This document shows, piece by piece, positions 45,701-51,700 of a DNA stretch of 64,000 bases. A program made the position numbers. This stretch comes from Escherichia coli O127:H6 str. E2348/69 (GTDB taxonomy: Bacteria; Pseudomonadota; Gammaproteobacteria; Enterobacterales; Enterobacteriaceae), in NCBI RefSeq assembly GCF_000026545.1, contig NC_011601.1; one strand, written 5' to 3'. Position 1 is the first letter of the stretch. Each line of letters opens with the position of its first letter.

Positions 45701-48700
45701 TAGATACGGCATATTCAAGATTTAATTTGGCAGTTGCAAATTCTATTGCTTCTATTGTCATTTCTTGATATCTTTCGTTTATCAAAAAAGTATTTACTGT
45801 GTTTTTAATTGAAATATTTGTAGTATCGTAAGATATGTTTATTTTTATTTTTTCTGGTGATGAAATCATTCCGTCTATTAATGTTAAAACACCATCCTCA
45901 TGAGTTAAAACGAAATTTATAACTTCATCATCCCACAGTGGGTTTAAATGTTCATTTGCGAAGAAATCAATTGTGCCTTTAAGGCTTGAGTTACATGAAC
46001 TACAACTTGGGATTAAATTGTTAATTACCAATGTAAGGTGAGGAAAGTCATCCTTACTATAAAAATGATCTAATGTAGGACGAAAACCGCGATTCTTTTT
46101 TTGTATCGAAAAAGCATATGCTTGATTGCAATACGGACATGTTCTGCTTATTGATTTTTTACATAGAGTATATGCATTCCATGATCCTGTTTTCCTAACA
46201 AACTTATTGTAATTAAAAATAGATCTTATTTCTTTGTCGAATTGCTTCGATATATCCGGCGTTATTGACAATCTGTGTTTGTACTCTCTATATATATCAA
46301 TACTCTCCAATATATCTTGTTTACCGGCAAGTATTAATAGGTGATGCACATCTAGAATAAATTTTTTAGCTTCGTCTCGTCCTTCAGAACTAGGAATGGA
46401 TTTATTTAAAAAGTTGCATATCAAATTATTTAAATAATGTGTATGTAATTTTATTGCTTTTTCCCAGTTGTTTTTAATTGAAATAATCATATATGAAGAC
46501 CTTCAATCCTTATGCTGCATAATTAAGCGTTCGATTTCGCTTTTTATTAGAGGGTTGTCTATATTATTTATAAGGTAATAATCTTTTTCAGTCAGTATTC
46601 TATTAGGTATTTTGTCGATGATGGTTTCAATTTTATTTGTTGCAAATTCTCCAATGGTTTTAGTTCCAAAAGATTCATTTAGTAAAATATAAAGAGGAGA
46701 TGCAAAACCACTTAACGTAGCATTTTCAATTGGTAGTCTAGTTATAAAGTCTTTGGGAACGTCTGTGGCTAACAATGGAGAGTGCGAGGCTAGAATAAGT
46801 TGTAAATTATCTATGCCCAGAGATGTTTTTAATGAGCCTAGCATTTTATTTAAATTAGAAATATATTTCCTTTGCCAATCGATATGTAAAAAAGCGTCCC
46901 CTTCATCTATTAATAGTAGTATTGATCTGATACCTCTATCTGACAGTTTAGTAATAGAGTCAGAGATGGCGCCAATTTGAGCTAGAATAGCAATTTGCCC
47001 AGAACTCATATCAGAAAAATCAATTTTAAAAATATCATTCAAATTGTATCTTGTTAATAACCCTTGTCCTTCGTAAGGGTCTATTTCGAATTCTAACCTT
47101 AAAGTTGATTCATTAAGTCTTGAATCCTTTATGATTTCATGGTTTTTTACCTCATATTTTATAATATTAAGTAAACTATCTATTTTGCTTTCACATTCTA
47201 AATATAATTTAGTCTCTCTGAGTTTTCTATTTGAACGGATGTTTAAATTTAAGTGTTTGTTTAATAATGGAATTACTACGTTATCACTGAACTGTTTTTT
47301 TGTACTTGCCCAATCTATTATGCTAAATATGGAAAAGAGTTTTTCTTCACCTGCGCGATGAAGTATTTCATCAATCAGATGCGCGGAGCAACGCTGCATA
47401 ATAGAATCAATTTCTGCTTGAATATTTTTATTGGTACTATATTTTATAGTGTCTGAATCGTCATTATCTATATTATCATCAATTTTTGCACGTAATGACA
47501 AAATATCAAGGAGACCGTGATTCAGTAGTATGCTGTTCTGATTAAGATCTTTATTATTTAAAGCGATATTAAGTATTAATCTTGCAACTTTGCTAATGTT
47601 TGTCATCTTCATGGCAACAACTTTTGGATAAATATCAAAGTCAGATATTAAATCCTTGTATTCGATAAGGTCAAATACAGTATTTTTTCCATTCAAGCTT
47701 GGAGATGCGTTAATAAACCTACTATCTCTAATATTCAACTTTGGTCTAAATGGTAATGGGGTGAAATATATAACTCCCCAGTTTCTAATTTCAGTATGAT
47801 CTATTCTTTCACCGCTAGAGTTTAATATTGTACAATCGCCTGTTAATTGCATGTTATTTTTAGGAAAGAAATAGTTAATTATGCTACATAAGGATTTTGT
47901 CTTCCCTGAACCATTTATACCAATAAGTAAAGATAAAGAATCCATATCATAAATATTAATATCATTAGCACTATTATTTCTTAGTTTAATTTTAGTGCCA
48001 TTTGTTGTGATTTCACTAATCATAATTTTCCTTTGATACTATCTTTGAATAAGATGGGGGCATTCAAGATCCATGTGAAATAAAACATAACAAAATCTTG
48101 TTCATATTGCAATTGATAATCATCTGTAATTTTATGATCTAAAATTTGGTTTGACGAAGTTTATTTTTGACGAGTTAAATTGATTATTTTTAGGGAGGAC
48201 ATCCATACCGCTCTCTGACTCTAATTGAACTCGCTTAGGACGGCTTGGGAAACGCTTGATCTCATTAGGTGTTAATTTATAGTTACTATCGTTAAATTTG
48301 GTACGTTTTTCAAACTCTGAGCGTGGAACATTGACACCCAGCACTTCATCATAGACATAGTTCTCTGCGATACGCTTATCATGGTCAGCATCAGTGGTAT
48401 CGGGTTTCATTCTGGCCCATATAAATTTCTCTCTTATATATCCTACTATCAGTAGCGTGAAACGTTTAAACAAACCATTCTGGCGGGGCTTGGTCTGTTT
48501 CCTACTCCTCACAGGAGCACGCTTCATCGCTCTGGTGTTTTGAGAAGAAGGGTTTTTCAGTTTAGTGGATTTATTTGGTTCAGGTGCAACCAGAACAGGG
48601 GATTTCTTAGCTGCAGCACCAACTTTACTGACCTTATTGGGGGCATGGTAAGATTTTACGGCTGGTCTTCTGTATGGTTCTGACTCTGCATGAATCGGTT

Positions 48701-51700
48701 GCTGCTTTGTTGTTGCCGGGTAGTCAGGGAGAACGATCTCTTCCGGTTCAGGAAGCTGGTAAACAGAGTAAGAGCGAACATCAACAACGATTTCCAGTGG
48801 TAGCTCACTGAATGTGGCGTAGACCTTCTTTGCTTCCTCAATTTGATGATCGCGTTGAGCTTGTTCAGCAGCTCGTTGTTCCTGAGACTCGGTATCATTC
48901 CATTTAGCACGATGAACACGCTGCATTGCCGGGCGGTTTGTTTCCGTTGCTTTGGCAAGCCAGAATGCTTTCTCTTCAGCACTGAATGCTTCTTCTGCCT
49001 GAGCAAGGGCATCAGCACATTGAGTTCTGAGAGAACGGTGATCGATACGTTCTTCACTGCCTGCGGCTTCAAGGTAGCTGTTTGACATCGTGGCCCACGA
49101 CTCACGCCACTGAACAACCATCTTCTTATCATTCCAAGTTCTGTCTTTTTTACCGAAGCCTTCGGGCCCGATGGTTTTCAGGGTTAACATGACGTGAGCG
49201 TGTGGGTTCTTACTGTCTAAGTCATGGAATGCGATATCAGCAATCATTCCTTTATCAACAAAGTTCTTCTGGCAGTATTCGGCAACCAATTTTTTCTTGT
49301 CATCATTGTTGAGTTCTACGGGAATAGCGACATCAAAATAACGGGCTGTTTGACCGTTGTTCTGGCGTTCCACTCTTTCAACTTCATTCCAGAGTGCTGA
49401 GGAGCTTTCAATAATATGAGCAGATGCGGAAACGGGCGCTAATATAATATGACCATGAAGATCTGTTCTGTGGCTGAAATCAAATGTTTCGCCAATGCGA
49501 TCATCTGTAATACGTGTACGGGCATGCTAGGCAGCTTTCGCAACGGAAGTCATGCCCTCGCTTCGTTTCACAATTTTAAAATCCAGATGGAAAATCGCCA
49601 TTAAAAATATAACCTCAAATAAAAATGCTGCTGTTAGTTTTTCGCCAGAAAAACTTCGGGGTTGACGTTGACCTTGGTTTTGCTTTTAGCCTGCGGCAGG
49701 CAACCGTCGGTAGACCCCACACACTGCGTAGCAGTGTATAGGTGGGCATTGTCTTTAAGAAAATAAGCCAATGTAAAATGCCCCTCTTATTAATTAATAC
49801 GAAATATATGTATGGTTGTAAAATAATACGCCGGGTTAAGCGGCGCAAACTGGATTAAAGGTGTAGGTTTCACGTCCACAGGACAAAAAGAGTAAAGAAA
49901 AGGCCCGTAAGGGCAATAGAAGTATTAATTATTCCCGCCGTAAGGCGGGATAGCTAAATTTGATGAAAAAAAACTAATAAAACAGAGAGTGTTATGTGTT
50001 GCACAATTTACAGGTTGAGATTGGAAAATAGAGTTTAAAATTGACAGGTGAAAATAAAAGCACAAATGCGTAAAAATAAGTAACGCGGAGAGTGCCAGAT
50101 GTTTTTGGTTAGTGAATACTATCATATGCGTTGCACATATTTATAAAGAAATGTATCAGAATCATTCTCTCTAACAAAATGGTGTAAATTTGACGTTATT
50201 TCTCTTTGTGATAATTAAATACGTGTAAACAACAAGAGGTGATAACTATGGATGATAATATAAAAAGACCAAGAACAGAAAAAACATTAAAGCAAAAGGT
50301 TGCTTTTGCTCAGCTTGAACTTAACCGCCTTAAGTCTCTGGAGAAATCAGAACGAAAGAAAGTTGAAACAAGGCTAAAGATTATACTTGGTGCGGAAGTA
50401 GCTAAAGCTATGCATTGCGATATCGAACAGGTGGATAAAGAACTCGTTATGGGGATTTTGCTTTCAGCATCTGACCTGAATGATATTGAAAAAATAACAT
50501 ATATAAAAGCAGGCAGGAAGTTTCTCGCGCAAATGGAGGGAAGACAAAAATAAAAATCTTTAAATTTATTTTGAGTCAGGTATTGATATCTGATTATTAT
50601 CTGTTATCTATATAAAAGAACAGAACGCAGGATAATCCTTTATTAATATTTTTTCCTTTTCAATCATGCGTTCTGTTCGACCAGTAATCTGTTAATTTTT
50701 ATCTTTATGTAGTGAACGTTATTATTTCTTTTTTATCAGATATGATAAATATCCCATGAGGAAGTAATAATGACAGTAGTAGTGATAACAAATGTTGTTT
50801 TTAAATCTCCCGGAAGGCAAAGAGAAATCTTTGCCTTTTTTAATTCATCCGTCTGTCAGACAGAGTTAAATATATCTTGTTATTTCTATTGCCAGATATG
50901 AGAGAAGCGTTATAACAGAAGTTATCATTAAAACAAAAAAGGAGATAATAATGGTTTTATTAAATAACCAAAGAAAAAGCAAGAAAGGTTTCTCACTACT
51001 CGAACTACTACTTGTTTTGGGCATCATTGCTGCATTAGTGGTAGCGGCTTTTATTGTGTATCCCAAGGTTCAGGCTTCACAAAGAGCACAGGCAGAATCC
51101 AATAACATTGCCACCATACAGGCAGGTGTTAAAGCGTTATACACGTCGGCATCAAGCTTTACTGGCCTGACAAATACTGTGGCTGTTCAGGCAAAAATAT
51201 TCCCTGACAATATGTTAAGTGGGTCAGGAACGGCAGCTAAACCCATCAATGCCTTTAAAGGTAATGTGACGCTGGCTGCGGCAGCGACTGGTCCGTCATC
51301 AGCGACTGGCTCTTCTTTCACTATCACCTACGATAATGTGCCAGCAGCGGAATGTGTGAAGATTGCAACAGCGGCAGCAGGTAATTTCTACATTACCACG
51401 GTTGGAACCAAGGTTGTTAAAGCCGCAGGAGGAACACTCGATGTGGCAGCTACGGCAGCAGCATGTACGAATGCCACAAGTAATACATTAGTTTTCACGT
51501 CTATTTAATGAAGAGGGCGTAAGCCCTTTTCTTTCTTATTGCTAAAACAGGGAGATAATTATGATAAAGAATAAAGGATTTACCTTACTGGAAGTCAGTA
51601 TTGTTTTAGGTATTGGAACGCTTATCGCTTTTATGAAATTTCAGGATATGAGAAACAATCAGGAAGCGGTATTGGCTGATAATGTCGGAACACAGATTAA

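Follow-up and report, generated by a model that had tools for sequence, protein, structure and literature searches.

Island IE3 of the EPEC strain Escherichia coli O127:H6 str. E2348/69 contains a relaxase gene, mobQ, which is interrupted by a TAG at the codon for the catalytic tyrosine. This raises the question of whether the stop is genuine and, if so, whether it regulates the relaxase or has simply destroyed it. The sequence-only reading of the locus had described a MOBQ-type relaxase with two lesions, the amber codon and a nearby frameshift, and had considered both real pseudogenisation and a programmed or suppressible inactivation.

The relaxase gene and its island

The window, that is, the whole stretch of 64,000 nucleotides analysed (contig NC_011601.1), holds the following features.

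35271..61084, no strand: island IE3 (EARL family), flanked on either side by 23 nt of the tRNA-Asn 3′ end as a direct repeat
48132..49601, minus strand: mobQ pseudogene, MOBQ / MobA-MobL relaxase, 489 codons plus stop in one frame with one internal TAG
49184..49226, minus strand: His-triad motif FHDLDSKNPHAHVM (H126, H134, H136), intact and in the frame of the ATG
49422..49424, minus strand: codon 60, TCT (Ser), the second change private to E2348/69 (CCT to TCT, Pro60Ser)
49527..49529, minus strand: amber codon TAG, codon 25, at the catalytic-tyrosine position; ancestral TAC, derived base 49527
49686..49751, minus strand: invariant block of ~66 bp, candidate oriT by its two hairpins and conservation
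50239..50553, plus strand: TraD-like small accessory protein (PF06412), divergent from mobQ across the candidate oriT; PGAP ‘conjugal transfer protein TraD’
50951-51508, plus strand: PilS-type type IV pilin, part of a conserved pilin module (50951..53024)
51561-53024, plus strand: PilV-type tip adhesin with a Shufflon_N domain, in the same module
59614..60882, minus strand: EARL-type P4-like tyrosine integrase, intact, adjoining attL

IE3 belongs to the ROD21-like (EARL) type of integrative mobilisable islands and occupies a tRNA-Asn gene of EPEC E2348/69, as named in two papers (PMC7074111; PMC6035254), the latter of which places it at 2147267-2173085 of FM180568.1 (25,819 bp), prints its integrase as c2172882-2171614 in the supplement and reports its excision by nested PCR. 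The window contains four exact copies of the 23-nt repeat where none is expected, namely three tRNA-Asn genes, one of which contains the copy at 61062-61084, and the copy at the island end (35271-35293). Besides the insertion at the tRNA-Asn 3′ end with direct repeats and the P4-like integrase at attL, we found TraD, MobA/MobL and type IV pilin genes; no T4SS genes were present among the annotated IE3 features, and no pilus assembly genes accompany the pilin module. A second integrase is a pseudogene, and among the cargo are H-NST, which antagonises H-NS, and candidate defence genes. According to the EARL description (Piña-Iturbe et al., 2018, PMC6035254), the tRNA-Asn insertion, direct repeats, P4-like integrase, TraD-like, MobA/MobL and type IV pilin genes and H-NST are all common to EARL islands and IE3, with no difference in kind, the island in the window being IE3 itself.

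The mobQ gene (48132-49601, minus strand) translates in a single frame with 489 sense positions and one internal stop. This frame spans the ATG, H126/H134/H136 and ERIDHRSL (184-191), and runs to the stop at 48132; the in-frame TAG lies directly after MAIFHLDFKIVKRSEGMTSVAKAA in the translation of the minus strand. The amber codon reported by the sequence-only reading therefore stands, whereas its coordinates were one base off, the ATG being at 49601-49599 (not 49602) and the TAG at 49529-49527 (not 49530-49528). A 1-bp frame change had also been placed near 49500-49501, but neither the single-frame translation, nor the comparison of length and indels with intact alleles, nor the PGAP notes contain a frameshift: at 1470 nt the gene is exactly as long as eight near-identical intact alleles, and only substitutions separate it from them. 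Because this frameshift is absent, the argument for pseudogenisation from two independent lesions fails. The existing RefSeq annotation by PGAP already labels mobQ a pseudogene, with ‘internal stop’ as the sole remark, so that the locus is already known as an ordinary pseudogene. In the available text and supplement of PMC6035254 the stop codon of the relaxase is not mentioned; disrupted ORFs are marked in a figure of that paper.

Codon 25 in the MOBQ family and in intact alleles

With codon 25 read as tyrosine, the repaired MobQ matched Pfam PF03389 (MobA_MobL) at E = 2.1e-53 and the NCBIfam MobQ equivalog NF041496 with 248.5 bits (cutoff 200), which bears out the MOBQ assignment. In HMMER alignments, codon 25 sits opposite Tyr25 of RSF1010 MobA (2ns6) and residue 25 of NES (4ht4), and H126/H134/H136 fall on the triads of both proteins (H-x7-H-x-H, motif III), confirming that the amber occupies the position of the catalytic tyrosine. 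MobA of RSF1010/R1162 (E = 1.9e-9 to MobQ) and NES of pLW1043 (E = 8e-25) have in common with MobQ the MAI(F/Y)H N-terminal start, the nucleophile position 25 and the triad. They differ from it in that their genes lie on plasmids, whereas mobQ is chromosomal within an island, and in that the C-terminal 280 residues of MobQ lack the primase domain of MobA and matched no Pfam family. Ti-type TraA is also related, the first 242 positions of its model (TIGR02768) matching the MobQ relaxase domain at E = 3e-50, but MobQ is without the helicase domain and reaches 171 bits with this model, far under the cutoff of 590. Unlike MobA and NES, mobQ of E2348/69 has a stop at the nucleophile codon, and since the tyrosine of motif I is thus replaced by TAG, the locus is a pseudogene of a MOBQ family member and not a functional member.

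Eight IE3-like islands of other E. coli (L129-L136), 99.6-99.8% identical to that of E2348/69 over ~21.5 kb, have an intact mobQ that is exactly two nucleotides apart from the E2348/69 gene. One is C75G, which turned TAC into TAG (Tyr25 to stop), and the other C178T, which turned CCT into TCT (Pro60Ser); residues 25 and 60 are accordingly the only differences between the E2348/69 product and the intact protein of these islands (P0122), which is indexed in 200 blocks of the collection. Codon 25 is TAC in all eight of these islands and TAT or TAC in six of six more distant E. coli homologues, so that Tyr25 is kept in all 14 intact homologues compared, and Pro60 is invariant in all homologues compared. 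The same gene, with the same length and neighbours (traD-like, PilS/PilV and the invariant upstream block), occurs in EARL (ROD21-like) and serU islands, whose relaxases include WP_000964090.1 (STEC1575) and WP_000964094.1 (CFT073, adjoining tcpC); E2348/69 differs from these relatives by TAG for TAC at codon 25, by Pro60Ser and by the pseudogene annotation.

A sequencing or assembly error, with a true codon TAC or TAT and an intact mobQ, could be suspected from the fact that codon 25 is only a single base away from the intact alleles. However, three E2348/69 chromosome assemblies, which were deposited separately and are unequal in length, agree with the window at 100% identity across 1801 nt, TAG included, and a Logan contig from an independent run (SRR1577781) has both the TAG and T178. 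The TAG is therefore no sequencing error, and the claim of real pseudogenisation is upheld on this ground. With an offset of 2,112,000, the coordinates of the window also agree with the original record, FM180568.1, which is a fifth source for the TAG. A database protein listed as ‘100% identical, 489 aa’ (P0001) was rejected as an intact allele of the E2348/69 type, because its residue 25 is Gln. The contig from which it comes, that of SRR1577781, reads TAG, and the locus does not yield this protein under table 11; it is thus a gene-calling artefact, in which TAG was translated as Gln, and another witness of the TAG. An error is effectively refuted, and we regard its probability as close to nil.

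The mutation is young. Background mismatches between the islands amount to 12-26 per 19.5-21.5 kb aligned and predict ~1.3 differences in 1470 nt, so that the two found in mobQ are unremarkable. Against more distant intact homologues, mobQ has a dN/dS of 0.26 over the whole gene and 0.10 in the relaxase domain, equal to that of intact-intact pairs, so that mobQ has undergone no prolonged decay. In the repaired ORF, 189 single-base substitutions would create a nonsense codon, two of them in codon 25, and hence a stop at just this codon is a ~1% event, noticed post hoc. Based on these comparisons, and with disrupted relaxases being frequent in this family, we propose that the TAG very probably represents a recent, lineage-private nonsense mutation that would abolish the function of the IE3 relaxase, with its position at the catalytic codon coincidental and with no frameshift involved.

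A conserved block upstream of mobQ

An invariant block of ~66 bp lies 85-150 nt upstream of mobQ and contains two hairpins, ACACTGC-TAC-GCAGTGT, with a 7-bp stem, and GCCTGC-C-GCAGGC. Seven of seven loci share it unchanged, except that L003 has lost one base, and these include loci whose coding sequences have reached saturation at synonymous sites; 105 of 136 loci contain its 29-mer core without a mismatch, and its fold as single-stranded DNA has z = -2.85. From this conservation and these hairpins, the block is a candidate oriT. It has no recognised similarity to the RSF1010-type nick sequence. A Ti/RSF1010-like TTGCGCC motif (~49840) was considered as the nick region and rejected, and the invariant block is preferred as the candidate because the more distant homologues do not preserve this motif. 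An Rfam scan of 47000-51000 returned only a chance-level suhB match (49878-49921, E = 0.38, with 21 bits where the gathering score is 41), and no RNA family explains the conserved block; promoter and terminator sites were no more numerous in the intergenic region than in shuffled sequence. The plasmid collection provided no characterised oriT for comparison, its 3-4 matches all being very large ‘plasmid’ records that resemble chromosomal pieces.

In Ti and Rhizobium plasmids, a small TraD gene is divergent across oriT. The TraD-like protein of the IE3-like loci carries PF06412, and in IE3 its gene is likewise divergent across the presumed oriT; no traC or traG of the Ti-type Dtr module, with TraA and TraC/TraD, was seen at the IE3 locus.

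Origin and consequences of the amber codon

The possibility that the amber codon is programmed or suppressible, that is, decoded as tyrosine by a suppressor or near-cognate tRNA, or decoded conditionally, so that the relaxase is regulated at translation, had been raised by the sequence-only reading and failed every test run, of TAG conservation and of suppressor tRNAs. The stop is private to E2348/69: among the 733 E. coli genomes with a match, the 61-mer containing the TAG is exact only in three E2348/69 records, and no TAG allele of codon 25 was found in the metagenome scan, against at least 120 with TAT or TAC, in agreement with the TAC and TAT of the intact islands and homologues. A tyrosine-inserting suppressor would restore the exact wild-type MobQ, but in a search that covered tyrosine-inserting suppressors on the tyrT/tyrU backbone, tRNA-Tyr(CUA) was exact only in the laboratory strain OV2 among 5426 genomes and absent from E2348/69, and the tRNAs of the window, including serU with its anticodon CGA, are wild type with no suppressor among them. 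The base following the amber codon is C, and in E. coli a UAG followed by C terminates translation comparatively weakly, so that low-level read-through may take place in mobQ; nevertheless, UAG in suppressor-free E. coli mainly receives Gln, which would give a catalytically dead Y25Q. The otherwise undamaged ORF also fits a stop that is read through, but so recent a mutation (two differences in 1470 nt, with a background of ~0.1%) would leave the ORF undamaged in any case. Programmed or suppressible decoding is thus exceedingly improbable. Very improbable, too, is the reading in which the amber acts as a leaky or conditional switch, with rare tyrosine insertion by a near-cognate tRNA-Tyr or by a suppressor borne on a phage or helper plasmid producing traces of wild-type relaxase and transfer of IE3 only in particular conditions, or in which loss of the nucleophile was selected, domesticating an island that still excises.

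Selection as such, whereby relaxase loss was favoured since it locks IE3 with its cargo in the chromosome or does away with a cost that nicking imposes, is unlikely. The two private changes in mobQ are non-synonymous substitutions at invariant residues, Y25 and P60, and the second IE3 integrase is a pseudogene as well; however, two changes in 1470 nt equal the neutral background of the island, and when there are only two changes, both should be non-synonymous in roughly every second case. Relaxase disruption is common in the MobQ family, and truncated relaxases recur, 12 of 94 metagenome homologues (~13%) ending before residue 450 and a frameshifted relaxase being noted for one Salmonella strain in the supplement of the EARL paper (PMC6035254), but no parallel events at codon 25 were found in the other loci compared. 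Moreover, IE3 is not locked in place, because the EARL integrase is intact and the island still excises according to that paper (PMC6035254). An origin in the laboratory, by which the TAG arose in culture of the 1969 isolate and is no feature of wild EPEC O127:H6, is unlikely. All sources of the TAG are E2348/69 or indistinguishable from it, and no other genome has it; yet stocks that have diverged so far that their assemblies range from 4.79 to 4.94 Mb all carry the TAG, which therefore predates the separation of the E2348/69 stocks. The sequenced stocks all go back to that one isolate.

The preferred reading, a recent nonsense mutation, would affect transfer as follows. By analogy with the MOBQ family, intact MobQ would bind the origin of transfer between traD and mobQ, nick one strand through Tyr25 with the metal held by H126/H134/H136 and, remaining covalently on the 5′ end, pilot the excised island through the T4SS of a co-resident conjugative plasmid. 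In the E2348/69 lineage, as the comparison with the intact alleles shows, a single C-to-G transversion turned codon 25 from TAC into TAG, after which translation should stop following 24 residues. The next in-frame start is a GTG at codon 77, so that a re-initiated product would also be without the nucleophile. IE3 excises, but without a compatible relaxase acting in trans it should no longer be able to initiate its transfer.

The finding has little importance beyond the biology of the strain. Database users may take it as a practical warning that a seemingly intact protein, with Gln at position 25, can be an artefact of the gene caller. As its MobQ lacks the nucleophile, IE3 is predicted to be unable to mobilise itself, and studies of EARL-island transfer in E2348/69, the EPEC reference strain, should use a TAC-repaired allele or one of the ~99.8% identical islands with an intact mobQ.

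Amber stop in place of the catalytic tyrosine of mobQ

Translated in a single frame, the relaxase gene mobQ of island IE3 (window 48132-49601, minus strand) reads MAIFHLDFKIVKRSEGMTSVAKAA*HARTRITDD..., with 489 sense positions and one internal stop. The positions that define the lesion are as follows:

49601-49599 (-), mobQ ATG
49529-49527 (-), in-frame TAG at codon 25

Both the His triad (H126, H134 and H136 in FHDLDSKNPHAHVM) and the ERIDHRSL segment (184-191) already lie in the frame of this ATG, and therefore the 1-bp frame change that the sequence-only reading had invoked is absent. 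That reading had placed the ATG and the TAG one base too high, and this coordinate slip is probably the source of the imagined frameshift. The 413-codon ORF given by the ORF finder is the same mobQ frame taken from the first start after the stop (GTG, codon 77).

Repaired to Tyr at codon 25, the protein is matched by Pfam MobA_MobL (E = 2.1e-53) and by the NCBIfam MobQ equivalog (248.5 bits against a cutoff of 200), so the proposed assignment to the MOBQ-type relaxases is upheld. In HMMER alignments of the repaired protein with the solved relaxase domains of RSF1010 MobA (2ns6, ...akadYiqreg) and NES (4ht4), codon 25 falls opposite Tyr25 of MobA and residue 25 of NES, and the His triad is aligned as well; therefore, the amber sits at the catalytic tyrosine, as had been claimed. 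The family membership of the ancestral gene and the position of the stop are thus established, together with an intact metal-binding motif.

The pseudogene itself is already known, being flagged in RefSeq, where the PGAP label is 'mobQ: MobQ family relaxase' with the note 'internal stop'. Comparison with intact homologues in other islands agrees with the assigned tyrosine: codon 25 is TAC in eight near-identical islands, and TAT or TAC in six further E. coli homologues, among them the copy that adjoins tcpC on the serU island of CFT073.

Origin and age of the stop

Judged from sequence comparison, the mobQ stop is best read as an ordinary loss-of-function mutation of very recent date, in a gene of a mobile element. 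The ancestral state is represented by P0122, the full-length mobQ protein of IE3-like islands, which falls in the 90% cluster around the repaired protein and is indexed in 200 blocks of the collection. Eight P0122-encoding contigs, from isolate assemblies and metagenomes, were compared; their gene order is that of IE3 and their identity to the window is 99.6-99.8% (12-26 mismatches per 19.5-21.5 kb aligned). Their mobQ differs from that of E2348/69 by exactly two bases, the derived states of which are private to E2348/69:

49527 (-), nt 75, C to G, TAC to TAG, Tyr25 to stop
49424 (-), nt 178, C to T, CCT to TCT, Pro60Ser (codon 60, 49422-49424)

Pro60, the P of the 'AP' directly before the conserved LWNEVE segment, is invariant across every aligned homologue. 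With the divergence seen across the whole island, about 1.3 differences would be expected in 1470 nt, so that two fit neutral divergence. Compared with more remote intact homologues, mobQ has a dN/dS of 0.26 over its full length and of 0.10 in the relaxase domain, the same as for intact-intact pairs. Purifying selection acted on mobQ until very recently.

A sequencing error as the source of the TAG is ruled out, because the codon is present in three E2348/69 assemblies of differing length (4.79, 4.85 and 4.94 Mb), in the window itself, and in a 2.6-kb contig from an independent assembly of run SRR1577781. The earlier conclusion of genuine pseudogenisation is thus right, on the strength of these independent sources; the argument from two independent lesions fails, as the second lesion does not exist. 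The same SRR1577781 contig (L128 508-1977) is the source of P0001, a 489-residue 'intact' database protein with Gln at position 25. Its DNA has TAG and does not yield P0001 under the bacterial code; P0001 was therefore rejected as an intact allele and regarded as a database artefact, in which the gene caller decoded TAG as Gln. Such entries may conceal pseudogenes from protein-level searches.

The sequence-only reading had also raised a programmed or suppressible stop, for which every test run was negative, leaving this explanation with no support. Among 733 genomes with a match to the 61-mer that spans the TAG, only the three E2348/69 records have it exactly, and the degenerate pattern V-A-K-A-A-TAG-H-A-R-T had no match in the metagenome collection, whereas its TAY version occurs in at least 120 metagenome stretches (77 TAT and 43 TAC among the matches listed). 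Only a Tyr-inserting suppressor would restore relaxase activity at codon 25; where E. coli has no suppressor, Gln is the main residue inserted at UAG by background read-through, which would give an inactive Y25Q enzyme. An exact copy of the tRNA-Tyr 5' half with anticodon CUA occurs in a single genome of 5426, that of the laboratory strain OV2, and all the others, including E2348/69, carry the one-mismatch wild-type sequence. The four tRNAs of the window are likewise wild type, including serU, the gene from which the supD suppressor comes, with anticodon CGA.

The placement of an ordinary nonsense mutation on the catalytic codon is a coincidence of about 1%, recognised after the fact: the repaired ORF offers 189 stop-creating single-base substitutions over 156 codons, two of them at codon 25. 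As any early nonsense mutation would be equally inactivating, selection would have no preference for codon 25 in particular. Among the metagenome matches listed, the end of the ORF can be seen in 94 homologues, and in 12 of these it comes before residue 450; disrupted relaxases thus seem frequent in these islands, or some of these cases may be errors in low-coverage contigs. A frameshifted relaxase in a Salmonella strain is recorded in the supplement of the EARL paper (PMC6035254).

Island IE3, its candidate oriT and its cargo

IE3 is a published island, and its coordinates in FM180568.1 (2147267-2173085; integrase c2172882-2171614) are those of the window shifted by a constant 2,112,000. It is delimited as a 25.8-kb island by a 23-nt repeat matching the 3' end of tRNA-Asn, located by exact-match search:

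61062-61084, repeat copy inside the tRNA gene
35271-35293, repeat copy at the island end

The repeat has four exact matches in the window against 0 expected, one in each of three tRNA-Asn genes and one at the island end. These boundaries and the intact EARL integrase are established. Three deposited chromosomes of E2348/69 (enteropathogenic E. coli O127:H6) match the 1.8 kb around the mobQ stop at 100% identity, and related chromosomal copies of the mobQ region occur in 807 of 5426 complete E. coli genomes.

The oriT of the island is probably the block at 49686-49751 (minus strand), the best candidate, which covers about 66 bp on the upstream side of mobQ. It is identical in the homologues compared except for a one-base deletion in one locus (L003), even though synonymous sites are saturated in their coding sequences. 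An exact copy of its 29-mer core is carried by 105 of 136 loci, Klebsiella and Yersinia records included, and the block contains a hairpin with a 7-bp stem (ACACTGC-TAC-GCAGTGT); an Rfam search of it gave no family match. Between traD and this block, two short GC-rich hairpins (49903-49950, minus strand; TCCCGCC-TTAC-GGCGGGA and GCCC-TTAC-GGGC) share the loop sequence CTTACGG and are kept in 7 of 7 homologous loci. In CFT073 (L004 3315-3659), the serU island carries the traD-oriT-mobQ module immediately upstream of the virulence gene tcpC; this island has been described as devoid of mobilisation or transfer genes (PMC5521745), contrary to which its mobQ is annotated intact.

Further genes of IE3 were noted at several places:

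50951-53024 (+), PilS-type pilin with a PilV-type tip adhesin (Shufflon_N domain); the pair is conserved in IE3, serU and EARL islands
45558-48023 (-), 506-aa AAA ATPase and 310-aa HNH-like protein, directly downstream of mobQ
57716-59547 (-), DUF262/GmrSD_N protein and HEPN-domain protein, adjoining the EARL integrase
55933-57403 (-), second tyrosine integrase, of serU-island type, in two pseudogene fragments in E2348/69 (frameshift, internal stop)

Near the PilS/PilV pair no pilus assembly genes or shufflon recombinase were found, and its putative function might be to put the island's own adhesin on the thin pilus of a helper plasmid. The ATPase/HNH-like pair, kept in all IE3-like islands, matches the candidate defence system PDC-M62 (A, E = 1e-22; B, E = 1e-40) and, more weakly, Septu PtuA/PtuB; the DUF262/HEPN pair looks like further defence-type cargo. 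In the eight near-identical islands, the gene caller gives the second integrase as a 425-aa ORF with a 90-aa tail.

Consequences for mobilisation

EARL (ROD21-like) islands, the family to which IE3 belongs, usually combine a P4-like integrase and a MobA/MobL relaxase with a TraD homologue and type IV pilin genes, lack a secretion system, and are viewed as mobilisable elements, and excision of IE3 has been demonstrated (PMC6035254, PMC7074111). In the literature, transfer of ROD21 is assisted by a resident conjugative plasmid, with F-like plasmids of the pSLT type reported in this role; for IE3, the pilin module suggests a helper of the IncI/R64 type. We propose that intact MobQ would nick oriT in the traD-mobQ intergenic region via Tyr25 and be exported together with the DNA through the secretion system of the helper. 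In E2348/69, translation of mobQ would stop after 24 residues, and any product re-initiated at codon 77 would lack the nucleophile; IE3 would thus still be able to excise, but would not mobilise itself unless helped in trans by a related relaxase.
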